Source: Acidobacteriota bacterium
GTDB taxonomy: Bacteria > Acidobacteriota > Thermoanaerobaculia > UBA5066 > Gp7-AA6
Direction: 5' to 3'
NCBI GenBank assembly: GCA_020199905.1
Contig: JAIVJS010000071.1
Location: forward strand, 8,668 to 72,667
DNA length: 64,000 nt
Position 1 is the stretch's first letter, and each line of letters opens with the position of its first letter. Positions 11,426 to 58,800 of this stretch are shown in pieces. The notes beneath the pieces are model-generated. The model saw only the letters and a program-made list of their open reading frames with translations, was not told the DNA's origin and did not search any database. The translations under genes and the position numbers were made by a program.

Positions 11426-12181
11426 TCAGTTTCTCCCGGGTTTGAGTGGCGGCGTCGGTTTGGCGGGGACCCCCTTCATCCGGTAGTGGCCGAGACCGCA
11501 GAGCTCGGCGCACGCGATCTCCCAGTGGCCGGTTCGCATGCCGTCGAACCAGATCCGCGTGGACATCCCGGGGACCGCGTCCTGCTTGACGCGGAACTCC
11601 GGAAGGAAGAAGGAGTGAATGACGTCCTTCGAGCGCAGAGTGGCGACCACGGGCCGGCCGACGGGAAAGTGCAGCTGATTCAGCGACACGATGTCGTCGG
11701 GTGTCCCGAACTTCCCGTCGGCGCCGGGATACTGGATCGTCCAGGAGAACTGCTCCCCCGTGATCTCGATCGGCAGCGCGTTGGCCGGCATGTTCTGCTT
11801 GATGTCGGCCCAGGTGCGGCGCGAGAGCAGCGCGAGCACGACACAGATCAAGGCGGGGATGATCGTCCAGATGACTTCGATCCGGTTGTTCCCGTGCGTG
11901 TACGTCGCCTTTCGGCCCTCGCGATGCCGGTACCGGAAGAGAAAGTAGAGCAGCATCGCCTCGACGATCACGAAGACGATCCCCGTGATCCAGAGAATCA
12001 GGCGGAACATGCCGTCGATCCGGGCGCTGTAGCTCGAAACGCCTTCCGGGAGCTGGAGCCAGCGGGGCAGCTCCGCCGCGCGGACGGCCGCCGCCGCGAA
12101 GAGCGCCGCGATGGAGAAAAGCCCCGTCCGGAGAGGCCTCCGGGCGGCGCGGACCGGTCCGAGTGCGTGCGTCTGCATCAC
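11426..12181 (-). CDS. coxB: cytochrome c oxidase subunit II (CuA; no fused cytochrome c domain)
   Basis: CuA ligand motif 'H...CAELCGLGHYRM'. Two N-terminal TM. No CxxCH. Confidence 0.9.
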   Translation of the reverse strand: MMQTHALGPVRAARRPLRTGLFSIAALFAAAAVRAAELPRWLQLPEGVSSYSARIDGMFRLILWITGIVFVIVEAMLLYFLFRYRHREGRKATYTHGNNRIEVIWTIIPALICVVLALLSRRTWADIKQNMPANALPIEITGEQFSWTIQYPGADGKFGTPDDIVSLNQLHFPVGRPVVATLRSKDVIHSFFLPEFRVKQDAVPGMSTRIWFDGMRTGHWEIACAELCGLGHYRMKGVPAKPTPPLKPGRN

Positions 12182-13179: not shown

Positions 13180-14274
13180 ATGCCGACGACGCTCGAGGCG
13201 GAGGGGCTCGCCCGCTCGTGGGGCGAGCGCCGGATCTTTTCGGGCATCTCGCTCCAGGCCGAACGGGGCGTGGTCGGGATCGCGGGCGAGAACGGAAGCG
13301 GGAAGACGACTCTGCTGAAGATTCTCGCCTCGCTGCTGCGGCCGGATTCCGGGTCTGTGCGGATCCGCAGAGGCGGGAAGGATCTCTCGGGAGACGCGCG
13401 GCGCCGGGCGATCGGCTGGGCCGGTCCGGACCTCGCCTTCTACGACGAGCTCACGGCGGCGGAAAACCTCGCGTTCTTTCGCGCCGCGGGGGGCTGCCCC
13501 GCGCCGGATCCGGAGATTCGCGACCGCCTCTCGCGCGTCGGGCTGACGCCGGCCTCGGGGCGCGCCGTCGGCGCCTTCTCCACGGGGATGAGGCAGCGCC
13601 TCTCCTCCTTTCTCTCCCGCGCCTGGGCCGTCTGCGCCAAGGACGCCGCCACGGAACTCCGGCGGCGAGTCGCGACGGCCTCCGTCCTCTTCTTCGCGGC
13701 CGCCTGCCTGACGCTCGTTTCCTTCGCGATCGGCCCCTTCGGGGTCCCGCCCGAAGCGCGGGAGACCGTTTTCTCCGCCCTCCTCTGGGTCGTCCTGTTC
13801 TTCTCGGCCGCCACGGGCCTGCCCCGCGCGTTCGTCCGCGAGGAAGAGAGCGGCACCGCGCTCGCCCTTCGCCGCGTCGCGCCCGCCGCCCCCGTCCTCG
13901 CTGGAAAGACGCTTTTCAACTTCCTGCTCTTCTGCGCGATCGCGCTCGTGACGGCCCCGGCCTTCGCGCTGCTGCTCGGCTGGCAGATCGCGTCTCCGGC
14001 CTCGCTCGCGGGGGTCCTCCTCCTGGCGGGGTTCGGGCTCTCCGTCGTATCGACGTTTCTTTCCGCTTTGGTCGCCCGCGCCTCGCACAAGAGCGTGCTG
14101 TTCGTGCTCGTCTCCTTCCCCATCGTCGCGCCGCTTCTTCTCTCGGCCATCGCGGCGACCGTGGCCGCCTCGCGGGGCGAAGCTCCGTGGACTGCCCTGC
14201 GCGTCCTCGTGGCTTACGACGGCGCCGCCGCCTGCGGGGCGTATCTGCTCGCCGGAGCCGCGTGGGATGAATGA
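13180..14274 (+). CDS. ccmB: CcmA'-CcmB fusion: heme-exporter ATPase truncated after the signature motif, fused in frame to CcmB permease
   Basis: Walker A 'GENGSGKTT', Q-loop and signature 'FSTGMRQRLS' are present. Walker B, D-loop and H-loop are absent. The sequence continues directly into a CcmB-like 6-TM domain ('ELRRRVATASVLFFAA...'). Confidence 0.7.
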   Translation: MPTTLEAEGLARSWGERRIFSGISLQAERGVVGIAGENGSGKTTLLKILASLLRPDSGSVRIRRGGKDLSGDARRRAIGWAGPDLAFYDELTAAENLAFFRAAGGCPAPDPEIRDRLSRVGLTPASGRAVGAFSTGMRQRLSSFLSRAWAVCAKDAATELRRRVATASVLFFAAACLTLVSFAIGPFGVPPEARETVFSALLWVVLFFSAATGLPRAFVREEESGTALALRRVAPAAPVLAGKTLFNFLLFCAIALVTAPAFALLLGWQIASPASLAGVLLLAGFGLSVVSTFLSALVARASHKSVLFVLVSFPIVAPLLLSAIAATVAASRGEAPWTALRVLVAYDGAAACGAYLLAGAAWDE

Positions 14275-14353
14275 CCCGGAGGAATGGTTGAGCGTCGGGC
14301 GTTGAGCGTTCCCTCGGACGCCTCCCGCCTGCCGACTCCGCTTTATGTAAGCT

Positions 14354-15235: not shown

Positions 15236-15286
15236 AGGGAAACGGAGCACGTCCTGGAGATCCGCGAGAGTCAGCGCGAGGGTTTC

Positions 15287-15757
15287 GTGGTCTTGGAGCT
15301 CGCCGGCCGGCTCGAGACGAAGACCGCGCACGCCTTCGAGCAGAAAGTCATCGAGCACCTGAGCGCGGGCGCGAGGCAGTTCGTCATCGACTTCAAGGAG
15401 GTCGAGTTCGTCAGCAGCGCCGGTCTTCGCGTCCTGCTCATGCTCGCCAAGAAGATCGGGGTCCGAGAAGGCACGGGTGCGCTGGCCCTCTCCTCCGTCA
15501 ACGACGCCGTGAAGCAGGTCCTGGACGTGTCCGGCTTCGCTTCCTTCTTCACTCTCGCCGCTTCGCCGGAGGCGGCGATCCAGGAGGCGTCGCGCCGCGC
15601 CAGCTCTCCCAGGATCCTCGAGCAGGCGGCGCGGGTCCTCGGCGTCCGGAAGCCCCCGGCCGCCGGATCGGGCGGCAAGGCGCCCGACTCCGAGATTCTG
15701 AACCGTGCCGCGTCGATCCTGAGATCCGGTCCCGATCAGAAGCCGAAGAAGCGCTAG
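15287..15757 (+). CDS. STAS-domain anti-sigma-factor antagonist (SpoIIAA-like)
   Basis: '...VVLELAGRLE...FVSSAGLRVLLML'. The likely true N-terminus 'LEIRESQREGF' starts at an in-frame CTG around 15254; no ATG is available. Confidence 0.75.
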   Translation: MVLELAGRLETKTAHAFEQKVIEHLSAGARQFVIDFKEVEFVSSAGLRVLLMLAKKIGVREGTGALALSSVNDAVKQVLDVSGFASFFTLAASPEAAIQEASRRASSPRILEQAARVLGVRKPPAAGSGGKAPDSEILNRAASILRSGPDQKPKKR

Positions 15758-15773
15758 ACGTTTCGGCCGCGGC

Positions 15774-17495: not shown

Positions 17496-17693
17496 TCGGC
17501 GGTGCGCGGAGCTCCGATTCGACCGTCAGGGAGAGCCCTTCGATTATAGCCGGGGGTACTTCGGGAAGGCCTTTGAGCATTTTCAGACGCGCGGGGGGGC
17601 GCGCGCCCAAAAACGGCGCGCGTCTCTTCCGCGAGTACGCGGGGCGCCGCTCGGGGCCTCGAAGTGTAGGATTTCCCCCGAAAGAGAGAGCGC

Positions 17694-18806
17694 ATGCGAG
17701 AAGACCTCGGCCAGATCGACGTCTCGATGATCGCGGACCTCGCGAGAATCAAGAAAGAGGAGGAGCTCCTCGAGGAGCGACTCGTCAAGATGGAGGCCGG
17801 GAAACAGAAGGTCTCCGCAAAGGTCTACCGGCGCGTGCGGGAGGACTACGAGTCCCGCCAGGCGTCTTTCCGCAACGAATCGATCCCCCTCCAGGACCGC
17901 GCGAGGCGCGAGTACCAGAAGCTGCGCGAGATCCGCGGAAAAGTCGAAGCGTCGCTCGAAGAGGTCGCCCTCGAGAAGGAAGAGCTCGAGTTCCGGCGCG
18001 ACCTCGGCGAGTACGCCGACGGGCAGTTTCAGGAGCGCCTCCACGAGTGCGAACAGCGCCTGGCGGAGCAGCGGGGCGAGCTCGAGCGGATCGACTCGAT
18101 GGGAAAGGACTTTCTGGACGCCTTCCACTCGGAAAAGGATCTGGAGACTCCTTCCTCCGAACCCGCGGCGGCTCCGGAGGCCACCGCATCCAAACCCGCG
18201 GCGCCGGCCCCGCCCGCGGGAGACGCCACGGCGATCCGCCCGTCTCCCTCCCTCACCCTTCCCTCGCAGCCGCTCGCCACCCCGTCGGAGGCGCTGCGCC
18301 CCGCCGGCGCGGCCCCCGGCGCCGAGCCGTCCGTCAGTGAGACCGTCATCGGGAGCGGCACGGCGAAAGGGGCGCCCCCTGCTTCTCCCGATGCCACCCG
18401 CATCGACGCGAGGGTGCGGGACTCGGTGGCCGCGACCCGGCCGCAGACCGTTCCGACGATGCGGACGGGGCCGCCGCCTCCGCCCGCCGGCCCTCCTCCC
18501 GCCGCGACGACGGCCCTCCCTCGCCCGAGGCTTCTCATCCCGGGCGAAGGCGGCACGAGTCGGGAGCATGTCCTCGCCCCCGGGACCACGTCGATCGGAC
18601 GGTCCCCCAAGAGCGACCTCTGCCTGCCGCAGGGCGAGGTCTCGCGGCACCACGCGGACATCAGCTTCGGCCCCGATGGCTACAAGGTGCTCGACATGGG
18701 GTCGCCCAACGGAATCTTCGTCAACGGGAAGCGGGTCAAAGAGCAGCTCCTCGCCGAAGGCGACGTCATCCTCATCGGGATGCAGAAGTTGACCTATCGG
18801 GCGTGA
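17694..18806 (+). CDS. coiled-coil / Pro-rich / C-terminal FHA domain protein
   Basis: N-terminal coiled coil, Pro/Ala-rich linker, FHA ('VSRHHADI...GSPNGIFVNG'). Confidence 0.75.
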   Translation: MREDLGQIDVSMIADLARIKKEEELLEERLVKMEAGKQKVSAKVYRRVREDYESRQASFRNESIPLQDRARREYQKLREIRGKVEASLEEVALEKEELEFRRDLGEYADGQFQERLHECEQRLAEQRGELERIDSMGKDFLDAFHSEKDLETPSSEPAAAPEATASKPAAPAPPAGDATAIRPSPSLTLPSQPLATPSEALRPAGAAPGAEPSVSETVIGSGTAKGAPPASPDATRIDARVRDSVAATRPQTVPTMRTGPPPPPAGPPPAATTALPRPRLLIPGEGGTSREHVLAPGTTSIGRSPKSDLCLPQGEVSRHHADISFGPDGYKVLDMGSPNGIFVNGKRVKEQLLAEGDVILIGMQKLTYRA

Positions 18807-18849
18807 GGGAATTTGAGAATCCGGTCTTGAGCGTCGAGCATCAGACCGG

Positions 18850-18960
18850 GAACGCTCAACCCTTCGATTCCCGATCTCGTTGACCGCGGAGTACCGCGGC
18901 CGTCTCCCTCCCGTCGGTCGCTCGGCTCCCGATTCCCGGCTCCGGTCCCGCTTACAGCCC
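18850..18960 (+). repeat. dispersed ~80-bp intergenic repeat, copy B
   Basis: 'gattcccgatctcgttgaccgcggagtaccgcggccgtctccctcccgtcggtcgctcggctccc'. Confidence 0.8.
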
Positions 18961-19404
18961 TCCGCCTTCCGCGCTCAGCGCCTGGCGCCCCAGTCTTTTC
19001 CTCAAGATGAGCCGGTTCCTCCCTCGCCGGCGCTCGTAGTGCTGCTCGTCGGTCAGTTTCTTCACGATCAGGATCCCCAGGCCGCCGATCGGACGGCCCT
19101 CGAGGGGGGCCGACGTATCCGGGTCCGCGCGCCCGAGCACGTCGAAAGCCCGGCCGTCGTCGGTGAACAGCATCTCCAGATATCCGCCCTGGACCGCCGC
19201 GGAGAATTCGACGCGGCGGCCGGCCGGACTCTTCCAGGCGTGCCGGCCGATGTTGGCAAGGATCTCGTCGAGGATCACGAGGACGTCCGAGCGCACGCGC
19301 CGGGGGAGGCCGCGTTCTTTCGCGAATCTCTCGAACCGCTCCGCGGCGCGGGTCCGCCCCGCTTCGGTGGCGGGCAGACGCAGCCGGAGCGGAGGGGCCT
19401 TCAC
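18952..19404 (-). CDS. anti-sigma regulatory factor Ser/Thr kinase (RsbW/SpoIIAB-like, HATPase_c)
   Basis: GHKL motifs ('ILDEILANIGRHA', 'DDGRAFD', 'GGLGILIV'). GTG start at about 19404 overlaps the stop of the upstream HExxH gene. Confidence 0.7.
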   Translation of the reverse strand: MKAPPLRLRLPATEAGRTRAAERFERFAKERGLPRRVRSDVLVILDEILANIGRHAWKSPAGRRVEFSAAVQGGYLEMLFTDDGRAFDVLGRADPDTSAPLEGRPIGGLGILIVKKLTDEQHYERRRGRNRLILRKRLGRQALSAEGGGL

Positions 19405-20561
19405 GAGAGGTCCCGCGGCTGACGCGGGCGCACCAGGCGCTCTCCGAGGTGGCCGCCCGCCGCCGCGAGCTCGTCCAGACGGAGCGACCCGAGAGCGATG
19501 ACGCGGGCGCGCACCGCCCGTTCTCCCCCGGCGGCGGACGGCGGCGGGAGAGCCGCGAGGCTCCGCGCGGCGTCGTGTACGAGTCGCGCGGCGACCGCGA
19601 GACCGTCGTCGGAGAGCGGAGGCGCTCCCCGATAGTTCTGGAGGCGGCCCCCCTCCCGATATTTCGGAAAGCTCTCGAGGCCGAAGAAACGCAGCGCCAG
19701 GTCCACCCTGTACTCGCCGAAAGCTCCGAGCAGCCCGACGTAGTCGGCGATGACCTCGTCCAGCAGGTTGTTGCGCATCGCCCCCGCCAGGCGGAAGGTC
19801 GCGTAGTGCGTCGCTTCGTGCGCCTGGCGGATTCTTCCGGAGAGCTCCAGCCATTCCCGTTCCTCGAAGCCGGCCTCCGAGGCCGGGACGCCGCTGTACG
19901 GACCCACGGAGAGGATGAGGAATCGGTCTTCGTAGATCTCCCGGCGGGCCGCGACGGCCGCGAATTCGCCGGACCAGTCACCGAACACGTTGGCCGCCTG
20001 CCACCTTCTCCGGTACTCGTTTAACCGGTCCCAGTTGTTCAGGCCGGTGACGATGCACGCTCCCATCGACGGCGGCACCGCGATGGGCTCGTTGCGCGCG
20101 GAGAACGCCCGGACGAGCGCCTCGAAGTCCGTTCGTTCGGGCGCGGTGAGGACGGGAACGGGGCCGGTGGGAGTCCGCGCGATCTCCAGGGTCACCCGAT
20201 CGGGCGCCGAGAGCGCGATCCCCGTGGCCTCGGGATCACCTTCGGGCCGGATCCCCCGGCGGGTCGCCTTCCTGTAGGCCTCCGTCGCGCTGATGCCCGG
20301 CCGGACGGGAAAGAGCAGCTGAGAGAAGCGGGCCGCCAGCGCGGGGATGGCGCCGGAGACGCGGGCCTCGTCCGCATACCGGGACCACGCCTCGAGATGC
20401 GGCTCCTCTCCGCCGGCGAACTCGAAGGCCCGCGCGGCCTGTTCCGGAGTGAAGAGCGGCGTGTCGTACGCAAACAGCTCCCGGATGACGTCCGGCGAAG
20501 CGCCGAGGGAAGCCAGGCGCCCGCCGCGAGCGGACGCCTCGGAATCGGCCGGCTCGCTCAA
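19401..20561 (-). CDS. hypothetical protein with zincin-like HExxH motif ('AHEATHYATF...LDEVIAD')
   Basis: 386 aa. Lies between the FHA-cNMP ABC transporter and the RsbW-like kinase on the same strand. No family confidently recognised. Confidence 0.55.
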   Translation of the reverse strand: MSEPADSEASARGGRLASLGASPDVIRELFAYDTPLFTPEQAARAFEFAGGEEPHLEAWSRYADEARVSGAIPALAARFSQLLFPVRPGISATEAYRKATRRGIRPEGDPEATGIALSAPDRVTLEIARTPTGPVPVLTAPERTDFEALVRAFSARNEPIAVPPSMGACIVTGLNNWDRLNEYRRRWQAANVFGDWSGEFAAVAARREIYEDRFLILSVGPYSGVPASEAGFEEREWLELSGRIRQAHEATHYATFRLAGAMRNNLLDEVIADYVGLLGAFGEYRVDLALRFFGLESFPKYREGGRLQNYRGAPPLSDDGLAVAARLVHDAARSLAALPPPSAAGGERAVRARVIALGSLRLDELAAAGGHLGERLVRPRQPRDLS

Positions 20562-20729: not shown

Positions 20730-23700
20730 CTAGACCTGCTGGCGCCGCGCGAGCTCGGCGAAGAGCCCGTTCTTCTTCATCAGCTCGTCGTACGACCCGA
20801 CCTCCGCCACGACGCCGTTCTGCAGGTAGCAGATGCGGTCCGCGTTGGCGATCGTCGACAGTCGGTGCGCGATGCAGATCCGCGTCGAGTTCATCTTGTC
20901 CATGCTCTGCGTGACCGTCGCCTGGGTCTTGTTGTCGAGCGCGCTGGTGGCTTCATCCAGAAACAGGATCTTCGGCTTGTTGACGATGGCGCGCGCGATC
21001 ATCAGCCGCTGCTTCTGCCCGCCGGAGAATCCCCCGCCGCCCTCGCTGACGTAAGTGTGCATCTGCATCGGCATCTCCCGGATGTCCTCGGCGAACCCGG
21101 CCGCCTCCGCCGCTTCCCACGCTTCGTCGATCGTGCGGGAAGAAGTGCCGACGATGTTCCGGTAGATGTCGGAGGGAAGGACGCGATTGTCCTGGAGCAC
21201 GACGCCGAGCTGCTGCCGGACGAGGCGCGTGTCGAGCGCCGCGAGATCCTGCCCGTCGTAGTAGATGCCGCCCTTCTCGGCCGTCTCGAAACCCAGCATC
21301 AATCGCATCAGGGTGGACTTCCCGGAGCCCGAGCCGCCGACGAACGCCACGAACTCGCCCGGCTCGATCTTCAGCGACACGTCCTGGAGGATCCAGGGGC
21401 CGTCTTCGACGTATCGGAACCACACGTGGGAGATCTCTATCTCGCCTTTCAGGGTTCCGGGCGCGGTCTTCGTATCGTCGATCTCGGGGGGCGTCGTCAG
21501 GATCGGCTTCAGGCGCTCCCAGATGGGAACGGCCTTCAGCATGCCGAGCGAAGCGTCCGAGAGCGACTGCATCGCCACGAGGAAGAGAGCGAAAGCGGTC
21601 GAGAATCCGATGAACTGGCCGGTCGAAATGCTCGAAGGAATTCCCTTGGCCGCTGCGCCCGTCTGCACGCTGACCAGCGTGAAGAAGATCGCCATCGAGG
21701 AAAGAATCGGGTACGCGGAGTTGAAGACGGAAACGGTATTCTGGATCTGACCCGCCTTGAATGCCAGGCGCCGCTGATCCGAAAACTCCTTCGCCCAGAC
21801 CCGGAAGCCGTGGTCTTCCGCGCCGGAGACCCGGAGCTTGCCGACGCCCGAGATCAGCTGGAGAACGAGGCCGGTGATCCTTCCCTTCATGGTGAGCTGG
21901 TCGCGCTGGTAACGGAGCTGGAGATAGTTCGCGACGGTCGTGAACGTGACGAACACGATCGTCAACCCGATCCCCAGAAGCGCGAGCGGGAGGCTGTACG
22001 TGAGCATCAGCACCACGTAGAAGATCGACGACATGGCTCCCAGGATCGCGCTGACTCCGGCGCCCGCCAGCAGGTGGCGGATAGCGTCGATTCCCTGCGC
22101 GCGGTCGGCGAGATCTCCGGACGAGTACTTGCGGAAGAACGTGGAAGGCAGGTCGAGAAGCCGATCCCACATCGCCGCCTGCACGGAATAATCCATCTTG
22201 CCCTGAACCCGGAGCACGGCGATGCTCTGCGTCAGTTTGAAGGCGATGGACGCGAGCGCGCCGATCACGAGAGCGATGCAGAACTGCACGAGCATTCCGC
22301 GCTCAGCCTGCGGGATCGCCGTGTCGAAGAGCCTTCCCGTGAAGTACGGCGTCATGGCGGCCAGGATTCCCATTCCGGCCCCCATGAGCGCCAGCGTGAT
22401 GAACTCCCGCCCGAGGCCGCGCACGCCGAACTTCAGGACGTGTTTGACGGTCAGGAGGCCATCGGGGAACCGGCGGTAGAACACCCACCCGAACGGCTGG
22501 AGCTTCGTCGCGAGCTCCGCGGTGATCGGCTCCCGCCGCCCCGTCTTGCCGTCGACCCACTCATACGACGTCGGCCCGGTCGGGAGGAGCGCCACCGGGT
22601 CCTTCGTCTCCTCGCTCCGGGCGAGAATCGGCCCCTGATCCTGCTCCCACCAGTTGTCTCGAAGCGCGACCTGGCGCGTCCGGAAGCGCGAGAGCGTGGC
22701 GACGGCGTGGAGATGGTCTTCGAAACTGCGCTCGGCGGCCGTCTCCGCCGGCTTGCGGGCCTCCATGCCGAGCTCTTCGCAGACCGCGCGGCACGCCTGA
22801 AACACCGGCTCCGCCTCGCCGAACGTCGCCCGCGTCTTGCTCTTTCCCGAGCTGGCGAGGACCGCGCCGATGTCCTTGTAGGCCGCTTCCCGCGCGGCGT
22901 TCAGGTTTTCGGACTTGTTCTTCTGCCGGTTGAACTCGTCGACCGATGCGAGCCTCTTGTTCAGGAACTCGCATTCGCAGAGAGCCTGGTGGAACGCGTC
23001 GAGCCCGCGCCAGAGCTCGGGACGCGCCAGGACGGCGGCGCTCGAACGCGGATTCAACGAGAGGCCCTCGACGGAGGATTCGATCCAGGTGTCCCGCGTC
23101 ACCGGAAAGAGGATGGCGCCGGCGCCCGGCAGGACTTCCGCCATGCTCACGAAGAGAAGCGCGCCGCCGCGGACCTCCACCCAGAGGACGCCCTTCTGAG
23201 CCCGGGCGCGTCCCTGGAAAGGAAGCATCGCCGGCTCTCCGTCCATGAGATCCACCGAGGCCGGTCCGGAAGGCAGGTCGCGGACGAGAGACTTCGAGAG
23301 GCCGGTCACCCACGTCTCGACGAGCGTCGAAATTCGCTCCGCGTGCTTCCCGGACGTCGCGAGTTCCGCGAGCCTCCCGCGCGAGATCATCCGCAGCTTG
23401 GTTCCCGTCTTCCCGGCGGCGAGAAACCCCGAGCCGAGGCCGTAGCCCGCGACGTCCATCCCGAAGAGAGCCTGGCCGGTCTCGACGCTGACGAAGTGCG
23501 TGCGCGCGCCCGCCTCGCCGTCCTTCAGGGGAACCGTGAAGATCTCGAGCCGGCCCTCCTCGACGATCCACATCGCGTTCGGATCGTCCAGGAGAAACGG
23601 CTGGTTGCCGGCGACCGGGATCGGCTCTCCTTCGTCTTCGAGGCGCACGGAGAGCGCCAGCCGTATGCTCTCGAGCATCTCGCGGCGCGGAATCTGCGCG

Positions 23701-24086
23701 GTCTGTACGAGGTCGAGGTCGTCTCCTTCGGGCTCGTCGTCGCGGAAGAACTCGAGCACGGTCCCGCCGACTCGGAAGCGGTCCAGGTGGTCGAGAGGAG
23801 CCTGCTGGACCCGTTGGTCGCCGATCCACGTCCCGTTGGCGCTGCCGAGGTCCGTCAGCAGGTAGCCCGTCGCCGTCTTTTCGACGCGGGCGTGCCGGCG
23901 CGAGACGCTCGGGTCGGGCACGACGGCGTCGCCCTCGACCCTCCCGATGACGCAGCTGTCCGCGGCCGTGAACTCGCGCCCCAGGGTCGCCGCGCCGCCC
24001 TCGACCGCGCGGAGGCGGAATCCGCCTGCCGCCACCGGCCGGAGCCGGATGATCTGAGTGGCTTCGAGATCGGGCTCGGTGCTCAT
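20730..24086 (-). CDS. NHLM-bacteriocin-system-type ABC transporter with N-terminal FHA domain and cNMP-binding-like domain, then TMD and NBD
   Basis: FHA ('SRRHARV...DLGSANGTWIGD'), cNMP-like ('MWIVEEGRLEIFTV'), 6-TM exporter domain, intact NBD (Walker A 'GGSGSGKST', 'FSGGQKQR', '[12 protein letters not shown]'). Confidence 0.9.
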   Translation of the reverse strand: MSTEPDLEATQIIRLRPVAAGGFRLRAVEGGAATLGREFTAADSCVIGRVEGDAVVPDPSVSRRHARVEKTATGYLLTDLGSANGTWIGDQRVQQAPLDHLDRFRVGGTVLEFFRDDEPEGDDLDLVQTAQIPRREMLESIRLALSVRLEDEGEPIPVAGNQPFLLDDPNAMWIVEEGRLEIFTVPLKDGEAGARTHFVSVETGQALFGMDVAGYGLGSGFLAAGKTGTKLRMISRGRLAELATSGKHAERISTLVETWVTGLSKSLVRDLPSGPASVDLMDGEPAMLPFQGRARAQKGVLWVEVRGGALLFVSMAEVLPGAGAILFPVTRDTWIESSVEGLSLNPRSSAAVLARPELWRGLDAFHQALCECEFLNKRLASVDEFNRQKNKSENLNAAREAAYKDIGAVLASSGKSKTRATFGEAEPVFQACRAVCEELGMEARKPAETAAERSFEDHLHAVATLSRFRTRQVALRDNWWEQDQGPILARSEETKDPVALLPTGPTSYEWVDGKTGRREPITAELATKLQPFGWVFYRRFPDGLLTVKHVLKFGVRGLGREFITLALMGAGMGILAAMTPYFTGRLFDTAIPQAERGMLVQFCIALVIGALASIAFKLTQSIAVLRVQGKMDYSVQAAMWDRLLDLPSTFFRKYSSGDLADRAQGIDAIRHLLAGAGVSAILGAMSSIFYVVLMLTYSLPLALLGIGLTIVFVTFTTVANYLQLRYQRDQLTMKGRITGLVLQLISGVGKLRVSGAEDHGFRVWAKEFSDQRRLAFKAGQIQNTVSVFNSAYPILSSMAIFFTLVSVQTGAAAKGIPSSISTGQFIGFSTAFALFLVAMQSLSDASLGMLKAVPIWERLKPILTTPPEIDDTKTAPGTLKGEIEISHVWFRYVEDGPWILQDVSLKIEPGEFVAFVGGSGSGKSTLMRLMLGFETAEKGGIYYDGQDLAALDTRLVRQQLGVVLQDNRVLPSDIYRNIVGTSSRTIDEAWEAAEAAGFAEDIREMPMQMHTYVSEGGGGFSGGQKQRLMIARAIVNKPKILFLDEATSALDNKTQATVTQSMDKMNSTRICIAHRLSTIANADRICYLQNGVVAEVGSYDELMKKNGLFAELARRQQV

Positions 24087-24087
24087 C

Positions 24088-26172
24088 TCAGTGGGCCGCG
24101 ATCAGGTATTTGTAGAAACCCTCGACGTCTTTCATGCCGTCGTGAGTCCCGCGCTGGACGATCTTCCCGCGATCCATGATGACGATCTCGTCCGCGTCCC
24201 GGATCGTGGAGAGCCGGTGGGCGATGATGATGCAGGTGCAGCCGCGCCGCCGGAGGGCGTCGTCGATCGTCGCCTCGGTGCTCGGGTCGAGCGCGCTCGT
24301 CGCCTCGTCCAGCAGGAGAATGGTCGGGCCGAGGGACAAAGCGCGCGCGATTTCCAGGCGCTGGCGCTGCCCTCCCGAGAAGTTACCCCCGCCCTCCTCG
24401 ACCGCCGCCCCGTATCCACCCTCGCGCGCCTCGATCACCTCGTGAATCTCGGCGTCGCGGCACGCGCGGGAGATCGTCGTCGTGGGAATCGTCGAGTCCC
24501 ACATCGAGACGTTCTCGCGGACCGTGCCCGAGAAGGGTCGACTTGCCGCTGCCGCTCATTCCGACGAGGGCGACGCGCTGGCCGGGCTTGATGACGAGGT
24601 TGAAGTTCTCGATGAGCGGCTTTTCGAGCGGGCTGTACCCGAAGGTCACGTTGCGGAGCTCGACGTGGCCGGTGAGCTTCAGGACCGCCCGGTCATCCTT
24701 CTCCTGCTCCTTCTCGCGGGAGTAGAGCGCGTCCTGCGGGTATCGGAGCACGTCGTCCAGCCGATTCATGTCCGCTTCGAGCTCCTGGAGGCTTCCGCCG
24801 AAGGAGACGAAGGAGTTGAGCGGCCGGGTGAAGCTGGCGACGAGAGTCTGATAAGCAACGAGCATCCCGACGGTGAGCTGGCCGTTCATCACCTTCAGCC
24901 CGCCGATCAGGAGCACGAGAGTCGTCGTCAGGGTGTTGACGAGCGGCGGGACGACGCCGACGGCTTCGCCGAGGATGCCGAGTGTCTGATCGGCCTTCAG
25001 CGCCTTCGCCTGGTATCCCGACCAGCGCCCGAAGAACTCCGTCTCACCGCCGGTCGCCTTCAGGGTCTCGATCATCTTCAGGCCGTTCATCGCGGTGCCC
25101 ATGAGCTTCCCGTGGTCTTGGGTGAGCCGGCGGCTCGCGTCGACCCGCTTTCTGGAAACGATTTTCACGGCAACGATGTTCAGGGCCGAGACTCCCATGA
25201 CGACGAGAGTCAGCGTCACGTCATACACGAACATGAGTGCCGCGTAGAACAGGATGAGAACGCAGTCGAGCGCGGTCGTCGCGAGCTTCCCCGAGACGAG
25301 ATGCGCCACCTTGTCGTTGATGAGGACCCGCCCTCCGATCTCGCCCGCGTACCTCTGGGAGAAGTAAGAGACGGGAAGCCGCAGGACGTGGTGAAAGAAC
25401 TGGCTCGACGTCTTCAGCGCGAGTTTCGTCTCCAGGCGCAGCAGGTAGTAGTCCTGGAGCCAGGTCAGGATCATGCGGATGACCGCGGTCGCGGCCATGC
25501 CCATCAGCAGCGACTTCAGGATCCCGGCGCGGTTGGACACCAGGTACTCATCGATGAAGATCCGGGCGAACGTCGGCACGATCAGGCCCGGGATCACGAG
25601 CGCGACGCCGCACAGGAAAACGAAGAGAAGCGCCGCCTCGGAGCCCTGAAGGCGCCGCCGAAGCGCCGCTCCCATGCTCGGCTTCTCTCCGCCCTTCGTG
25701 AACTCGGGTCCCGGCTCGAACGTCAGGACGACGCCGGAAAAGGACGCGTCCACGTCCTCCATGGTGACGACGCGCGGCCCCTGCGCCGGATCCTTCAGGA
25801 AGACCTTGCCCTTGCTTCCGAACCCTTCGAGGACGAGGAAGTGGTTGAAGTTCCAGAACAGGATGACGGGGAACTTCTGGACGTAGAGATCGTCCAGCTC
25901 GTACTTGTAGCCCTTCGCGACGAGCCCGTACTTGCGGGCCGCCTTCATGATGTTGCTCGCCTTGCTCCCGTCGCGCGAGACGCCGCACGCGACCCGCAGC
26001 TCCTCGAGCGGCACGATCTTCCCGTAGTACGCCAGGATCATCGCGAGAGCCGCCGCGCCGCATTCGACCGCCTCCATCTGGAGGATGGTCGGCGTCTTGA
26101 CCCGACGATGCTGAGGCTTCTTCGGGGTGGCGGGCGCTTCGTCGGTCTCGGGCTGCTTCTGAGCTTCCACGT
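24088..26172 (-). pseudogene. C39-peptidase-domain ABC transporter (bacteriocin/lanthipeptide leader-cleaving exporter), NBD disrupted
   Basis: N-terminal C39 domain ('ECGAAALAMILAYYG') and TMD intact. After Walker A ('[10 protein letters not shown]'), about 43 aa including the Q-loop are missing and the frame shifts by +1. The rest of the NBD ('FSGTVRENV...FSGGQRQR...[11 protein letters not shown]...IIIAHRL') is in ORF 24088..24504. Likely GTG start about 26172. Confidence 0.7.
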
Positions 26173-26177
26173 GCCGC

Positions 26178-27329
26178 CTAGCCCCCGCCGAGGGACCTCT
26201 TGACCACGGGCAGGACGTAGGAAATGGGCGTACGGCTCTCGACAACGACCGACGCCGTCGCCAGGGTGCCGCTGTTGACCTGGGTCGGCGGGCCCTTGGA
26301 CGACGACCACCGGTAACCTGAAGGGGTCGACGCGTCGGGGATGAGCGTCGCGACGGCCTCGATCGGGGCGCTCTTCCCCATGAGCGTCTCGACGAGCTTG
26401 TCGTTGCGAAGCACTTTTCTCAGCCCTTCCGGCGTCACCGGAAACTCCGAAACCGACTTCACCTTCCCGACGAGGAATCCGTACTCTTCCGCCTTCACCG
26501 TCGTGGGAGAAATGCGGACCTGCATTCCGGGGCGGACCTTCTTGCCCTCCCCCGCCGGAATGTAGATCACCGTTTCCAGGGGAGCATTCAGAGGCTCGAG
26601 CGTCAGCAGCCGGGTCCCCGGGCTGATCATGTTCCCGCCGGAGCTCGTGACCTCGAGGACTCTCCCGTCATAGGGGCTCCGGATGTCGGTAGACGACGCC
26701 AGCTGCTCTTCGAGTTCTTTGAGCTGGCGCTTCAGATCCTCGACGCGGATCACCTGCCCGGACTGGGAATCCTTGTTCTGCGAGATGAGCGCCTCCGTCG
26801 AGGCCAGCTGCTCCTGAGTCCGCAGCAGCGTCCCGTTGGTCAGGAGGCCCCGGGCGACGAGCCGCTGCTGGACGCCCACTTTTTCCCGCAGCGCCCGCGC
26901 CTGCGCCTGGTACTGGCCGACGATCGAGCTTCCCCGCTGCCCCGACGCGGTCCTCTGCGCTTCGAGCTGGACGAGCCCGGCTTTCGTGTTGGCGATCTTG
27001 AGGGTGAGCTCCGGCTGGGCGATCTTCGCGACCACCTGACCCTTCTTGATCCGGTCGCCGGCCGCCACGAGCACCTGTTCGATGCGCCCCTGCGCCCCGG
27101 AGCTCACGTCATAAACGGCGGCCCCTCGGATCAGCATCCCCTGCCCGTCGACGCGAATGCCGATCGAGCCCACGACGCTCCAGACGACGACGAAAGCGAG
27201 GATGATCCCGGTGCCGACCAGCGCAATCCACCCCGTCGGAGACGTCACGCGCATCATCACGTCGAGCTGCTCGGGAGAGGACAGCTTTTCGAGAGCGCTT
27301 TTCCGAAAAAGCCCTTCGCCTATACCCAT
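26178..27329 (-). CDS. HlyD-family secretion protein (NHLM bacteriocin system membrane-fusion protein)
   Basis: Single N-terminal TM, coiled-coil, beta-barrel MFP architecture. Start 'MGIGEGLF' at about 27329. Confidence 0.85.
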   Translation of the reverse strand: MGIGEGLFRKSALEKLSSPEQLDVMMRVTSPTGWIALVGTGIILAFVVVWSVVGSIGIRVDGQGMLIRGAAVYDVSSGAQGRIEQVLVAAGDRIKKGQVVAKIAQPELTLKIANTKAGLVQLEAQRTASGQRGSSIVGQYQAQARALREKVGVQQRLVARGLLTNGTLLRTQEQLASTEALISQNKDSQSGQVIRVEDLKRQLKELEEQLASSTDIRSPYDGRVLEVTSSGGNMISPGTRLLTLEPLNAPLETVIYIPAGEGKKVRPGMQVRISPTTVKAEEYGFLVGKVKSVSEFPVTPEGLRKVLRNDKLVETLMGKSAPIEAVATLIPDASTPSGYRWSSSKGPPTQVNSGTLATASVVVESRTPISYVLPVVKRSLGGG

Positions 27330-27574: not shown

Positions 27575-30500
27575 CTAGCGGGAGCCCGTCAGCTCGTAGA
27601 TCCGCGGGTCCACCTCTCCGAACGTGATGTCGCGATCCGTCCGGCTGTAGGGCAGCAGCGAACCGGTCTCGAAACGCAGACGGGTCACGTCCGAGGCGAA
27701 AGTCTGGCGCGCCGACACCGAGTCGAGGAGCGCGGAAGTGAGATCCCGCTCCGTCAGAATCGCGTCGAGCAGGCTGATTTCCCCGGAGCGATACTGCTCG
27801 AAAGAGTTTCGGATCGTCTCCTCGTAGTACCCCGCGGCGGCCCGCCGCCGTTCCGCCTCCCGGGCGGATTCGCGGGCCGAATTGGCCGCCTGCACGGTGT
27901 TCGCCTGGACGGTCCGCTCGAGATCCCTCGCGGCGATTCCACTCGAGGCGAGAGAGGACTCCGCCTGGAGCAGGAGGCCCCGCTGCACGTTGTTCTTGAA
28001 CGGCAGGGCGAGCCGCAGGTTCACCTGGAAACTCGGGCCCGTGTATTTGCCTCCGAAGGCATTCTTGTATCCCCGGAGGTAGAAGACGCTTCGCGCCGTA
28101 TCGCTCACGTTCCCGGCGGCGTCCCTCGTGAACGCCTCGAACCGGCTCCGGTAGTCCGCCTGCAGCGTGACGCCGAGGCTCGGCCTCAGGTTCACCCGGG
28201 CCGACTGCACGAGCGCGTCCGCGGCGCGCTCCCGCTCGCGCAGCGACTTCACATCCCCGCGCGCGCGCACCGCTCCTTCGACCAGGTCCCTCAGAGACTG
28301 CTCGTCCAGCCGCGCCGCCGACGGCGCTTCCGGCAGCGAGTCCGCGGCGAGCGGCGCATTCCCCATCGCCGTGACGTCGAGCCCGATCGCGCGCGCGAGA
28401 TCGACCCGCGCGTTGGCGAGGGCGCCGCGCGCGCCGGCCACGGCCGCCTCCGCTTCGGCTCGCCGGGCTCGCACGCGATCGAGCTCCGCCCGGGGGATCT
28501 CGTCCCCCTGCACGAGAGCCTCGGAGAGCTGATGGATCCGCCCCTGCGCGCCGGCCGACCGGTCGAGGAGGGTGAACCGCTCCTCTGCGGCGGCGAGCCT
28601 CCAGTACGCCTGCAGGGTGTCGCGCACGCTCTGCGAGGCGATCTGGGCCAGGAAGTCGAGCGACGCCTCATAGTTCAGTTTCGCGGCTCTCAGGGCGGCC
28701 TCCGTCGCGACGTAGCCGAACCCGCGAAGCAGCGGCGCGTCTACGGAGAAACCGAGCACCGCGGTGTAGGAGGTCGGGATGCCGCGGCCGCCGAACGAAG
28801 CGGTGTCGCTCTTGCCTTCGAAGTTGTTCCGGAGGCCCTGGGCGAGAATGATGGGCGACACGATCAGACCGTTGTGAAGCGGGATGTCGTATCGCAGATC
28901 CAGGGTCAGCGTGTCGCGGATGTCGTTGCGAGGCAGAGGCCCGAGCCGCGCGAGAGACTCGTAGGCGCGGCCGGACACCTCTCGAGCGCCGGCGTCGAAC
29001 CGGGTGAGCAGGTCCGCGTAGAAATCGTTGTAGCGCTTCTGGGCGGCCTGAATGTCGGCGCGCTCGGCCGCGTTCGGGTCGTTGGCGGCCAGCGCGGCCA
29101 GCACATCCTCGAAATTGCGGCGCGCCAGCGCTCCCTGCACCACCGACGGCTGGATGTTGGTGCCGCTGACGTCCAGGCAGATCGTCACGCCGTTGACGGT
29201 GAACGTCGAGCCGGAGCACGGCCCGAAATATTTGTAGGAGTTCGCTTTCCCCTGGGCGAGCGAGGTTTCGATGTCGGTCGCGACCTGAGCGAGCACGTCG
29301 CCGAGGGTCTTCAGCGCGTAGCGGCGTTGTACCTCGGGAGTCAGAGGACCTCGCAGCAGGAAACCGATCGCCCGGTCGTAAGAGGGCATGAACACGACCG
29401 CGCTGTCGAAGAACCCGAGCGCCTCCTGGTAGAGGCCGAGGCGGAGGGCGACGTCCTGTCTCGCGAGCTGGATCTGCGGCTGCAGGTCGAGCGTCCGGCG
29501 AACCGCGTCCGCCAGCCGGATCCTCTCGCCGGCCGGTTCCGGCGGAGCGTAGGGGCCGACCGGGGCCGAGGGCGGGGCGAACTGGCCGAAGGCCGCGCCC
29601 GATGCGGGCGGCTCCGCGCGCCGGGCAACGGGCGCCCCGGGCTTTCCGGAGACCCTTCGGCGTCCAGGCCGCGCCTCGGCGGGAACGGAGGCTGTCCTGC
29701 CCCCCGAGGCAACGCCGGGCGCTGTCGGTTTCGGCGGAGGCCCGGCGGCCGGGCTGATCGAGCCGGCGGTCACCGCCGGACGGGGCGTCGTCGCGGGCAC
29801 GAGCGTCGGAGTCACCCGCCGCGTCACGGAGGGGGCCGCTGTCTCGCGGCGCGTCGCGGGCGGCGTCGTGATCCGAGCCGGGGTGGGTCCCGCCGCCTCG
29901 CGGACGAGGGTCCCGCTCTCGAACCGGAGCTGCGCGAGGAGAGTCGCGTACTGCTGGCGCGCCAGCGCGTAAGTGATGAGAGCGCCGGTCTGGAGCTGTT
30001 GCGTCAGGATCGTGTCGATGAGCGAGGACTGGCCGCTCCGGAACATCTCGTTCTCCGACTCGATCGTGCGGCCGTAGTAGTCGACAGCCTCCCGCGCCCT
30101 CTGCACCTGATCGGCCGTCTCCTGGAGAGACCGCAGGAACTGCACGACGTTCGCCTTGATGTTGCGGTCGAGGTCCGTCGCCGTGATCGACCGCTGCTTC
30201 AGGGTCGCGTCCCGCTGCTCGAGACGGCCCCTCGCGGCGTGGTTCCCGAACGGCTTTTCGAAGTCGAGGGCGACGGAGAAGCTCGGCGCGCTCCAGCCGC
30301 GGCCCGTGTTTCCGATCCGCCGCTCCGCGACGGTTCCGGCGGTGATCGGGCTGTGAAGGTCGAGCCGGGGCCGCAGGTCCGTCTCGGCGGCGCGCAGCAG
30401 GACGCCTCCTGACTCGATCAGCTTGCGCGCCGCGAGGCGGTCGTACCGGCGGTCGACGGCGCTCGTGATCAGCTCGTCGGGGCTCGCGCGGCGAAGGACC

Positions 30501-31562
30501 GCGGGGTCTGTCGGTCCCGGGAACGCGTCGGCCGCGAGCGGGGCGTTCGCCTCTTCGAGGACCGAGAGCCCCATGGCGCGGGCGAGGTTGACGCGCGCTT
30601 CGTTGACGGCGCGCGCGGCGTTGAAGACGAGGCTCTGGTCCCCCGCCTGGCTCGCGAGCACACGCGCCCGTTCGGAGCGCGGGATCTCGTCGCCGGAAAT
30701 GAGCGCGTTGGTGACGTCGACGCGCCGGTTCTGGAGCTCGACCGACTTTCTGGCGATGTCCAGCTGCTCCAAACTGCTCGAGGTTCCGCTTGCCCTTGAA
30801 GCGGTCCGACTCGAAGCTCCCCTTGAAGATGAGTCCCGGGGTGATGCCGTTGCGCGCCGGCTGGATCAGCTGGAGATCGATGTTGCCCGCGATGCTCTGG
30901 TTTTCCTTCGGGAGGGGACCGAGATCCGCGAGCTTCTGCCGCTCGCTCGCGAGCTCGATCTCGGATTGATTGAAGACACGCTGGTTGGTCGAGAGCCCGC
31001 GCGCTATCAGGTCCCGTCGGAGGTTCTCGTAGATCGCCCTCACTTCCGGGTCGGTCGTGTTTCGGATCGTCGTATTGAGGATGTCGAACTGGGTCTGCTC
31101 GCCCGTATCCGTCAGGCGGAAGCCGGTCGGATCGAGCGCGAGGCGCTGGTACTCGCCGATCGCCGACTGCGCGGTGTCGCGTGTCTGCGTGATGTCGGCG
31201 ATGCTCTTCTGAATGTCCGTGCGACGTTTCTGCTCCGCGATCACCTGCGACCGGGTCAGGGCCGTCTGGGTGAGCGAAAAGTTCAGGTTCCCGAGGAGAG
31301 TGAGATCGAAACGGCCGGTTTCCGTCTGCGCCACACCCTCCTGCAGCCGCGTCTGCTGCTCGGAGAGCTTGATGTTGGGATCGTGCTGGAGCGTGAGCCG
31401 CACGGCGTCGATCAGGGAAATGCGGTTGTCCGGAAACGTCAGCGCGGGAGGGTCGTAGGGCGCCGCCGGAGCGTCCCGGTGCGTGTCCGCGGCGAGCAGC
31501 GGACCGCACGATACGGCCATCAGGAGAACGATCGGACGCAACCGCGCGGGCAACGCGTTCAT
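27575..31562 (-). CDS. tandem double TolC-like outer-membrane factor (two complete OMF units joined by Pro/Ala/Thr-rich linker); first unit interrupted by a 10-nt insertion/frameshift
   Basis: Frame A (from 31562) has a signal peptide plus the TolC N-half up to '...KGKRNLEQ'. Frame B (30772 downward) carries the TolC C-half, a ~130-aa linker and a second full TolC-like unit without a signal peptide. Deleting 'caaactgctc' at about 30768-30777 joins the frames to '...RNLEQLDIARK...'. Confidence 0.65.
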
Positions 31563-34457
31563 CTGCGGACTCCTTTGTCGGCGGCCGAAGGCGCCGGCGA
31601 AGAATTTCGATGTAAGGACTGAACAAAACGTAGCATCGGCGCGCGAGCGGCGTCAAGGCCGCGACCGCCGCGAGGGGACTCTTCGAAGAGCAGCACGCAC
31701 GGAAGAAAATCGGGCGCCGCGGACCTCAAGAGCGCATAGCCGATTCCCGAGAGCCCGCGGAAGAAGCCGGGGTCGGCCGGGGCGGAATCGTTTCCCTCGT
31801 TTTCGAGGCGGAAGCTTCCGCGGGCGATCGCGGCGTGCAGCAGGGCGGCGATCCGAAGGTCCGCCGCGCGGCGCCAGTCGTCGCGCCCCGCGGCCTGCCC
31901 GGCCGCGAGGAAGATCTCCGCGAGTCCGGCGTTTCCGCAGCAGAGATGGTCCGTCGAGAGAAGGCCGGTCGCCAGGGCGGCGGACATCGCGCGCTCGAGC
32001 TCGCCCGAGAGGGACGGGTCCGGAGACCGGGCGAGCATTCCCGCGCGAGCGAGAGCGATTCCCGGAGCGCCGTGACACCACGCCTTCATGAAGACCGGCG
32101 GACGGCTCGGAACGGGCGAAAGCACGGGCCAGTTGCCCTGCGCCGCGTCGTACAGGCTTTCCTCGTAAAGACGCGCCTCTGCGGCGGCGGCGGCGAACCG
32201 TTCTCGGCCCCCCGCCTCGGAGAGCCGCGCGAGCGCCAGAGAGATGCCCGCCGCTCCGTGCGCCAGACCGGCCAGGCACGTCCCGCCCGGCGACTCCCAA
32301 CCCCATCCGCCGCCGGTGATCCGCTTCGCCCCCGCGAGCAGAGAGTCGCCGCACACCGTTGCGGCTTCGAGCGCCGCCGGATCGCCCGTCAGCCCGTAGA
32401 GCGCCAGCAGTCCGAGCGCGGCGCCCGCCGCGCCGCCCTCGACGTCCGGTATCGCGGTGCCGCCGATCCGCGCGCCGGTGATGCGCGCGGCCGCGCGGCG
32501 CGCGAGCCGCAGGAAGTCGGGGTCGCCCGAGATCGAGGCGATGGCCGCGAGACCGTATACGAGCGAGCCCGTTCCGTCGCCGGCCCCGATCGACTCTCCG
32601 GGCGCCGGTGCCGCGTCTTCCCCGTCCGCGTCCAGGGCGTGCGCGATCGGCCGGCAGACCTCGCGCGCCGCCTCCAAAAACGAGGAGTCCTTCGCGACGG
32701 ACGCCAGGGCCGCGAAGAAGACCGCGATGCCGGCGGCCCCCGAATAGAGGCCCGTCCCGCCGGCCGCCGGCCGCGCGGCCAGAGTCCTCCTCACGTCCTC
32801 CCCGATCCCGCGCGCGAGCCGCAGGAGCTCCGAGGGAGAGAAGCCCGGGTCGCCGGGCGGCCGGCCGGATCGGGATGAGGGCGGAGCGAGCCTCGGACGG
32901 AGCCACGCGACCTGACCCGCCAGGCCTTCTTCCGACATCGCGGCCAGCCGTCGCCTCGCGGCCTCCAGCCCCGACCGCACGATGCGTCCCTCGATCGGAT
33001 CGCCTCCCGCCACGGGAATTTCGCGAGCGTCCACCGGGACGCGGAAGTACGGGACGTCGAGCCTCTCCAGCGCGGAGCGCTCTTCCTGCGTGAGACGCCA
33101 CAGCGCCGGCGGTCGATCGTCTTCGCGGAAGACACGGTTCAGAGAATCGATCGCGAAGCTGCGCGAGACGCCATCGCGAAGGTGCCCCGGCGCGGCGAGC
33201 TCAAGGAGGAGGCGGGCGTAGGTCTCACTCGCGCGAAGCACCAGGCGCGTCGAGATGCCGGCGAAGGCATCGAGCGGACCGCCGGGCGAGCCAATCCCGC
33301 GGCGATGTTCGATCAGGGCGCGATAGGCGTCGGAGAACCCGCGCTCGAGTTCCTCCGGGAAATCGTCCGGCAGGAGAGCGTGCCCGTCAAAAATCGGAAG
33401 ATTCATCGGGCTGGCCGGGGAGGTCGCAGCGGTCGTCTCCATCGCGTCCGTGCCGGGACGGGGGAAGGTCGGCCTCACCGCCGCCGCGCCGCCCCGCAGA
33501 CCGGACAGCTCCGAGACGTCCCCCGACCGCTCGACCCGCGGCGACGTGAGAAGGCCCGAGCGAAGCGCCGACTCGCGCCACTCCCGCGCGAACCGGCCGA
33601 TCGCGCCCGATCGTCCCTCGTCCGCCGCCGCGAACTCCGGCTGCAGCGCCGACTCGGCATCGACGATCGCGGGGCCATCGGCCGACCCGATCACGTTCTC
33701 GACATGGAGGTCGTCCAGACCCATGAGCCAGGCGGCGCAGAGGAGAGCGCCCGACCGGCGGACATAGGCGCGGGCGCCGCCCTCCTCCGCGAGAGCCCCG
33801 CGCTCGATGAGCTCGAAGTATCCATAGTCGTCCCGGGAAAGGGCCACGACGGGCCGCAGCCCCAGGGAGGGGACGCGCCCGCCGAGCCAGGAGAGGAACC
33901 CGTCCCACGCCGCTTCCGCCCGCGGGTCCCGGGGCTTGTAGACGACCGCCGCGCCATTTTCGAATCGGAGAACGCTGACCGTGCGGCCTCCCCGGTGACG
34001 GTCGGAAATCGACGGAACGATCCCGATGACGGGCCCCTCCGCTCGGAAGCGCTCCGCCAGCGCCCTCCGATCGGCGGAGAGGCGCGCCGCGAGTTCGTTC
34101 GTCGTGTCGACCCAGCTCTCCGACAGGATGGCGAGCTGCCGGGCGAGGACCCGGAAAGGCGACGCCGGCATCGACATCGACCGGGAGCGCGGTGTCCCCG
34201 CGCGCGGCCCGGGAAAGGTAGGACGCGAAGACCGCCGTCCACGGAGGCAGCGCGCCGCCCGGGAAGGTGACGGGAACGGCCAGCGCCGCGTTGACCCGCG
34301 CCTCGTCGAGACCGTCCCACGCGAGCCGACGGGCGAACGCGTCCTCCCGCCCTCCCGCCACCATGCGAGCCCACCCCGCGAGTCGCGGGTCGGTTTCCGG
34401 ACCGGGGACCGGTTCGCGGATGCCTCGGGCGAGATCGAGTCTCTCGTCCAGGCTCAT
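31559..34457 (-). CDS. lanM: class II lanthipeptide synthetase LanM (dehydratase DUF4135 + LanC-like cyclase); apparent frameshift near the 5' end
   Basis: LanC-like C-terminus ('WCHGAPGIALA', 'CCGNAGLAEIFL', 'GxxHGxxG'). DUF4135 region ('RTVSVLRFENGAAVVYKPRD'). The first ~90 aa with a LanM-like N-terminus ('RLAWDGLDEARVNAAL') lie in ORF 33387..34457 in another frame; the switch is around 34165-34200. The 5' end overlaps the TolC start (ATGA). Confidence 0.8.
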
Positions 34458-34571: not shown

Positions 34572-34892
34572 TTAGACGAGCTTGATTTCGACGTGGGTGT
34601 TGATCCCGCCCTGCGCCTTGTTGCAGTTGTGGTCCAGGAAGCCCCCGGCCACCATCTCGAGCGCGCTGTCGGAGAGCTCCGCGCCGGCCTTCGGCACGAA
34701 GGGGACGACCACGTAGAGCGTGTCGGCCGTTTCCTCGACCGCCTTGACCTTCATGCCCGAGGGGAGGGTCGTGTTCAACTGCTTCTCCATCGTGCCCTTC
34801 GGATCCTTCATGAGCGCCTCGCGATACTTGGGGTCGTTCGCCGCGAACTTTCCGAGAAGATCCTGAATCTCTCCGCGACTGATGTCGGCCAT
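34572..34892 (-). CDS. lanA: NHLP (nitrile-hydratase-leader-peptide) family lanthipeptide precursor
   Basis: Leader 'MADISRGEIQDLLGKFAANDPKYREALMKDPKGTMEKQL...VKAVEETADTLYVVVP...ELSDSALEMVAGG' matches the NHLP leader consensus and ends in a GG cleavage motif. Predicted core 'FLDHNCNKAQGGINTHVEIKLV'. Confidence 0.85.
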   Translation of the reverse strand: MADISRGEIQDLLGKFAANDPKYREALMKDPKGTMEKQLNTTLPSGMKVKAVEETADTLYVVVPFVPKAGAELSDSALEMVAGGFLDHNCNKAQGGINTHVEIKLV

Positions 34893-36154: not shown

Positions 36155-36254
36155 CGCCTCCGGCGAGTAAGAGCTCAAGAGACCCCTCCCTGGGACGGCG
36201 GGACGAGCGGTGCCGCCGTCCCGCGATCTGCCTCGGTCCTCGTGCTTGTGTGAG

Positions 36255-58561: not shown

Positions 58562-58800
58562 GCCGGAGTATAGGCCGAAGGCGCGGGAGGCGGGAGGCGG
58601 GAGGGCGAAGGCGGAGAAGCTCTCAGCTGTCAGCTCTCAGCTTCCCGCCGGCGCCGGTCGCCGGACGATCCGGCGAAAGGCGAAACAAGATCGGGGCAGC
58701 GGCGTCTCTTTCAATTCCCGATCTAGTTGACCGCGGAGTACCGCGGCCGTCTCGCTTCCGTAGGTCGCTCGGTTCCCGGATCCCGTTCTCCGGCCCGCCT
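58562..58800. repeat. heptamer block ((GCGGGAG)n, (CTCAGCT)n) plus dispersed ~80-bp repeat copy D (58690-58800)
   Basis: 'gcgggaggcgggaggcgggagggcgaaggcggag', 'ctctcagctgtcagctctcagc', and 'aattcccgatctagttgaccgcggagtaccgcggccgtctcgcttccgtaggtcgctcggttccc'. Confidence 0.8.

Follow-up and report, generated by a model that had tools for sequence, protein, structure and literature searches.

The gene for an NHLP-family C39-peptidase exporter in the window (the whole stretch of 64,000 nt analysed here) lacks exactly 131 nt of its ATPase domain, and this gap is most likely an assembly dropout, a technical cause that we infer with a probability of about 0.7. The gap is private to one assembly, while the assembly of its closest relative carries a different gap that overlaps the same site. 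The preliminary description of this DNA had concluded that the exporter gene was either a pseudogene or wrongly assembled at this point; both are possible, and the further private gaps reported below favour an assembly error. The 131 nt would thus have been lost during assembly, scaffolding or polishing of the contig rather than mutated in the organism, in whose real genome the gene probably encodes an intact NHLP-family exporter of 737 aa.

The exporter gene and its missing segment

The exporter gene begins with a GTG start codon at 26170 and has its true stop at 24088, the ORF as listed being 24383-26245. It is 2083 nt long in the window, compared with 2214 nt for the intact orthologue. As written, the gene consists of the following parts:

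24088..26170, minus strand: NHLP-family C39-peptidase/permease/ATPase exporter gene, TIGR03796 (profile and Pfam searches, orthologue alignment)
24536..26170, minus strand: N-terminal part, codons 1-545, in frame (translation, profile and Pfam matches)
24535..24536, minus strand: deletion junction, a clean single gap with no microhomology (DNA alignment)
24383..24535, minus strand: out-of-frame tail of the N-terminal ORF, ending in GGRGGRG and a stop codon (translation)
24088..24534, minus strand: C-terminal 148 codons and stop, in the +1 frame (translation)

The N-terminal part encodes the C39 peptidase, with its catalytic Cys37 located in QMEAVECGAAAL, followed by a membrane domain of six helices, and it extends into the ATPase domain as far as Walker A (GMSGSGKST). 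From 24640 to 24383 the reading continues in frame A and closes on GGRGGRG and a stop, the nonsense tail comprising 48 residues, and the remainder of the ATPase domain is readable in the +1 frame. This C-terminal part carries FSGTVRENV, the signature motif FSGGQRQR, Walker B and the H-loop (IIIAHRLS). 

DNA alignment was carried out between the window, contig JBHEMI010000081.1 (L081, 99.8% identical; hereafter JBHEMI) and four relatives of 85-89% DNA identity. It places the missing 131 nt between 24536 and 24535 on the minus strand, equivalent to positions 11636-11766 of JBHEMI. The position, the size of approximately 130 nt, the +1 shift and the loss of the Q-loop given in the preliminary description were therefore correct. 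That description had also proposed a comparison with orthologues: the stretch is kept in JBHEMI, in five relatives of 85-89% identity and in every orthologue examined. The best of these orthologues (P0001, 737 aa, 99% identical) was found by protein search in Thermoanaerobaculia MAG GCA_046262695.1, on contig JBHEMI010000081.1, and its NCBI name is that of the TIGR03796 family. Nearly all of the exporter homologues listed are likewise about 737 aa in length. Residues 546-589 of P0001 (VAKVV...VDQDIFL), which include the Q-loop Gln and fill the whole interval from Walker A to the conserved FSGT, are absent from the window, and the 148 residues that follow the gap are all identical to those of P0001 (148/148). 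Rescue of the exporter by programmed frameshifting was ruled out, as 44 conserved residues are physically absent from the DNA.

Searches with the NCBIfam profile TIGR03796 showed the N-terminal fragment to match positions 1-521 (750.2 bits) and the C-terminal fragment positions 565-709 (253.2 bits). Profile positions 522-564 (43 positions) are absent and the two halves of the ATPase domain lie in different frames; neither fragment alone reaches the curated cut-off of 853.3 bits. The C39 domain (PF03412, match 2-132/133, E 5e-34) and the membrane domain (PF00664, ABC_membrane, match 2-274/274) bear out the earlier statement that the peptidase and transmembrane regions are intact. The ATPase domain is incomplete, with PF00005 (ABC_tran) matching only at 2-28 and 71-137, and the exporter of the window thus has no continuous ATPase domain running from Walker A through Q-loop, signature and Walker B to the H-loop. 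In the intact paralogous transporter, which matches TIGR03797 at 2-685/686, 44 residues occupy this interval, close to the 43 or so estimated previously.

The lanthipeptide export cluster

The exporter belongs to a typical class II lanthipeptide export cluster with an NHLP-leader precursor, a locus of known kind. Genes matching TIGR03794 and TIGR03797 and an NHLP-leader precursor, the expected neighbours of a TIGR03796 protein, are all nearby. The members of the cluster besides the exporter are:

20730..24086, minus strand: partner ABC transporter, TIGR03797, with N-terminal FHA domain, 1118 aa, intact (910 bits, positions 2-685/686)
26178..27329, minus strand: HlyD-type adaptor, TIGR03794, 383 aa as called in JBHEMI (profile, 332 bits)
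27575..30772, minus strand: artificial fused ORF of two outer-membrane (OEP/TolC-like) genes (alignment with JBHEMI)
31559..34457, minus strand: LanM class II lanthipeptide synthetase, gapped (alignment with JBHEMI)
34572..34892, minus strand: NHLP-leader precursor peptide, 106 aa (sequence and neighbourhood)
35087-36178: sigma-54 activator (cluster member)

It has been described that the TIGR03794/TIGR03796/TIGR03797 transport set is linked to NHLP/Nif11 precursors and LanM (Haft, Basu & Mitchell 2010, PMC2887384, where the set was defined), and its arrangement with lanthionine clusters was described in the same work. The precursor peptide in the window possesses a nitrile-hydratase-like leader ending in EMVAGG, followed by a 22-residue core, FLDHNCNKAQGGINTHVEIKLV; the C39 domain is expected to act on it. 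In the intact system the C39 domain of the exporter would cleave this precursor after the VAGG motif. The exporter, its FHA-bearing partner ABC transporter, HlyD and two TolC-like proteins would then export the LanM-modified lanthipeptide. Intact, as in the sister genome, the system is an NHLP/LanM export cluster of known type, in which the FHA-bearing partner transporter is the less common element. The partner transporter (20730-24086) has an N-terminal extension of approximately 425 aa that contains the FHA domain.

Breakage in the window extends to LanM and both outer-membrane genes of the cluster, which went unmentioned in the preliminary description. Genes for FHA, cNMP-binding-FHA, GAF-SpoIIE phosphatase, STAS, HATPase_c_2 kinase and DUF7005 proteins were identified within 14354-20561. 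The set resembles a partner-switching or phospho-signalling module and is a possible regulator of the export cluster. An intergenic repeat of approximately 110 nt is present in two copies of 86% identity (18863-18971 and 58710-58818), with a conserved core, GAGACGGCCGCGGTACTCCGCGGTCAAC, that contains a short palindrome. Scanning the window against Rfam gave no match, for this repeat or elsewhere.

Private gaps in the window and in its sister assembly

Over a comparable length of approximately 48 kb, the window was set against two references, JBHEMI (99.5-99.8% identity) and contig JAIVJB010000030.1 of assembly GCA_020200255.1 (hereafter JAIVJB). The latter is the closest relative of the window, with an identity of 99.6-100% per aligned block, mostly at least 99.88%. 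No mention of the sister assembly accessions was found in the literature. Beyond the 131 nt of the exporter gene, the window shows five further private gaps: stretches of 275, 209, 335 and 245 nt and the 3' end of COX2 are missing.

Three of these lie in the cluster and were located by comparison with JBHEMI. LanM lacks 275 nt at the junction 34151|34150, and the first of the two outer-membrane genes lacks 209 nt at approximately 30771|30770. A stretch of 335 nt at approximately 29898|29897 comprises the stop codon of this gene together with the first 88 codons of the second gene; its absence removes the stop and so creates the OEP1-OEP2 fusion ORF of 1065 aa at 27575-30772. The other two gaps affect housekeeping genes with essential respiratory roles, outside the cluster:

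13180..14274, plus strand: ccmA-ccmB read-through ORF (comparison with JAIVJB)
11426..12181, minus strand: COX2, with its 3' end replaced (comparison with JAIVJB)

From ccmA, 245 nt are absent at the junction 13602|13603; they encode all of CcmA from Walker B onwards as well as the beginning of CcmB. The result is an apparent in-frame fusion, whose product matches ABC_tran at 3-118/137 and then CcmB. The COX2 sequence of the window breaks off behind YRMKG (at about 11468), from where it passes directly to a point just upstream of COX1, while JAIVJB goes on with FVTVETDEEFNKWI; no length can be assigned to this loss, as the JAIVJB contig ends there. Compared with JBHEMI, the window is free of gaps from 34.2 to 46.2 kb, and from 14.1 to 24.5 kb there is only a single difference of one 7-nt repeat unit. 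At 14335 the window has one copy fewer than JBHEMI of the tandem unit CGGCAGG. This difference is of the ordinary slippage type and is the sole small private indel seen in the window.

JAIVJB has eight private gaps of its own, of 355, 179, 338, 31, 236, 160, 180 and 203 nt. The 355-nt gap corresponds to window positions 56471-56825, that of 179 nt to 44348-44526 and that of 203 nt, in ccmA, to 13369-13571, and the 338-nt gap falls in ccmF; the acyl-CoA dehydrogenase region is also affected. Two of the eight lie in the C39-ABC gene, one of 160 nt (window 25675-25834) and one of 180 nt in the ATPase domain, and no gene was called across this region in the JAIVJB record. Not a single gap is common to two assemblies, and JBHEMI is free of gaps, being the longest of the versions at each site.

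The window and JAIVJB share approximately 30 derived SNPs relative to JBHEMI. As they nevertheless have no gap in common, the gaps were not inherited from an ancestor of these two. In the region covered by all three sequences, the ratio of private large gaps to private SNPs is 3:19 for the window and 5:10 for JAIVJB, with the window's 7-nt indel lying outside this region. Twelve of these 19 SNPs occur in one hypervariable linker, the twelve window-private SNPs clustered at 29643-29835 in the Pro/Ala-rich linker of the outer-membrane ORF. The aligned blocks are otherwise 99.5-100% identical and contain no small-indel noise. The 13 gaps are on average 221 nt long (31-355 nt); nine of the lengths equal 2 mod 3, three equal 1 mod 3 and one is a multiple of 3, a distribution with a post hoc p of approximately 0.03.

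Three of the window's gaps abut or overlap a different gap of JAIVJB, a degree of co-localisation for which placement simulation gave p of approximately 0.009. In LanM, the 275-nt gap of the window and the 236-nt gap of JAIVJB abut within 1 nt at JBHEMI 60563 (merged-reference position 12304). In the ATPase domain of the exporter, the 131-nt gap of the window overlaps the 180-nt gap of JAIVJB with differing end points. In ccmA, the gaps of the two assemblies lie on either side of 31 nt that both keep and that code for the signature motif. Such co-localisation suggests that the breakpoints depend on the site and arise repeatedly in assemblies independent of one another.

Origin of the gaps and comparison with known systems

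Several candidate causes were sought at the junctions. The window contains no Ns, so nothing in it confirms a reading as stripped scaffold gaps. Repeat-mediated misjoining found no support, as the 18-mers at all junctions are without another close match in the window, and hairpin-mediated slippage likewise, the DNA fold of the deleted segment with its flanks being unremarkable (z = -1.6). The GC content of the deleted segments (0.59-0.73) does not differ consistently from that of the flanks (0.65-0.74), so that dropout through GC bias was also discarded. Breakpoints at 21-mers shared with related genomes gave no consistent pattern, the LanM region being uncovered by these relatives. Microhomology is present at two junctions (4 nt and 2 nt) and missing from most.

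Sightings of the junction elsewhere were looked for in two collections. The 25-nt junction of the exporter gene had no match among JGI contigs; an adjacent 32-nt control shared with JBHEMI also had none, so this negative is uninformative, the population being missing from that collection. A search of 5.8 billion proteins with a 93-aa query covering the frameshift tail recovered no carrier, the hits being confined to broken ABC fragments of other genomes that are unrelated to it.

Substitutions outnumber indels in the mutation spectra of bacteria, and most indels there measure 1-10 nt. Given such spectra, the almost all-deletion spectrum seen here, with lengths of 31-355 nt, is not natural, and this argues for assembly dropout. 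One frame-breaking gap per 6-8 kb would, if extrapolated, amount to hundreds of broken genes genome-wide. By the same extrapolation, such a density of gaps, with ccmA, ccmF and COX2 among the genes hit, would be incompatible with a viable free-living genome. Counting against dropout, a de Bruijn assembler cannot make a junction of this sort without supporting reads.

It is unlikely that the lesion is instead a real strain-specific pseudogene, in which 131 bp of the ATPase domain were lost within a decaying, dispensable lanthipeptide cluster. The exporter is disrupted relative to its intact orthologues, and the deletion bias of bacterial pseudogenes is established. In keeping with relaxed selection, a single accessory cluster contains four of the six gaps in the window, all inside 10 kb (24.5-34.2 kb), and the flanks of this interval, as given above, are without gaps on one side and show only the 7-nt difference on the other. 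The breakage also affects LanM and the two outer-membrane genes, and after one loss the rest of the cluster would be free to decay. The clean alignment, devoid of small-indel noise, and the 4-nt and 2-nt microhomologies also sit well with a biological deletion. Against this, gaps of the same kind are present in ccmA and COX2 of the window and in ccmA and ccmF of the sister assembly, so they are not confined to dispensable genes; the eight gaps of the sister assembly are all different ones, and deletions are far more numerous relative to SNPs than in natural spectra. The complete identity of the 148 residues beyond the lesion to the intact orthologue shows no sign of subsequent decay, an observation of low statistical power at such divergence. 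In addition, none of the 5.8 billion proteins searched was found to carry the frameshift tail of the junction. Were the lesion real, the product would retain the peptidase and the membrane domain, while ATP could be neither bound nor hydrolysed, no peptide would be exported, and the whole pathway (LanM, exporter and outer-membrane parts) would be dead.

Far less probable still is real heterogeneity of the Thermoanaerobaculia population, with sub-clonal deletions of around 200 nt at recurrent, sequence-determined fragile sites. These could arise, for example, from site-specific double-strand breaks and end joining, with each assembly having sampled another subset, a scheme to which we give very little credence. 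The co-localisation of window and JAIVJB gaps at three sites with differing end points is as this would predict, as is the general lack of microhomology at the junctions, which resembles end joining. It would mean that a given gene has deletions that vary between closely related cells and are adjacent to one another or overlap. However, neither a nuclease nor a target motif or repeat came to light at the junctions, assemblers normally take the majority path so that minority deletions should not recur, and JBHEMI is without any gap; recurrent technical breakpoints also explain the co-localisation.

With assembly dropout as the favoured explanation, the main value of these observations is as a quality warning: both the contig of the window and assembly GCA_020200255.1 need checking at the level of reads. 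Calls of pseudogenes, gene loss or gene fusion (such as OEP1-OEP2 and CcmA-CcmB) are unsafe in either assembly without those reads. A real lesion would be an ordinary event, namely the inactivation in one strain of a known type of lanthipeptide export cluster.

In several respects the gaps resemble the dropouts of metagenome-assembled genomes: they are private, many per contig, 31-355 nt in length, set within sequence of more than 99.5% identity and break unrelated genes. They differ from the usual dropouts of this kind in that the junctions are without Ns or repeats, that gaps co-localise between two assemblies and that nine of 13 lengths equal 2 mod 3. As regards the transporter itself, its combination of C39 domain, six transmembrane helices and nucleotide-binding domain, and its substrate with a double-glycine leader, are like those of the PCAT/AMS family (PCAT1, LahT). 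PCAT1 and LahT are homodimeric exporters of the Gram-positive type. Unlike these, the present locus has a second, peptidase-less ABC paralogue and further partners of the HlyD and TolC-like types, a set that suggests a hetero-oligomer reaching across both membranes. The locus also resembles the NHLP/Nif11 export system (PMC2887384), with the same three-gene set lying beside a GG-ending NHLP-leader precursor and LanM. The locus departs from that system in that the C39-bearing transporter is short of 44 residues, the Q-loop among them, and in the window is divided between two frames, that the second ABC transporter carries the FHA-bearing extension of about 425 aa, and that two TolC-like genes are present in the cluster.
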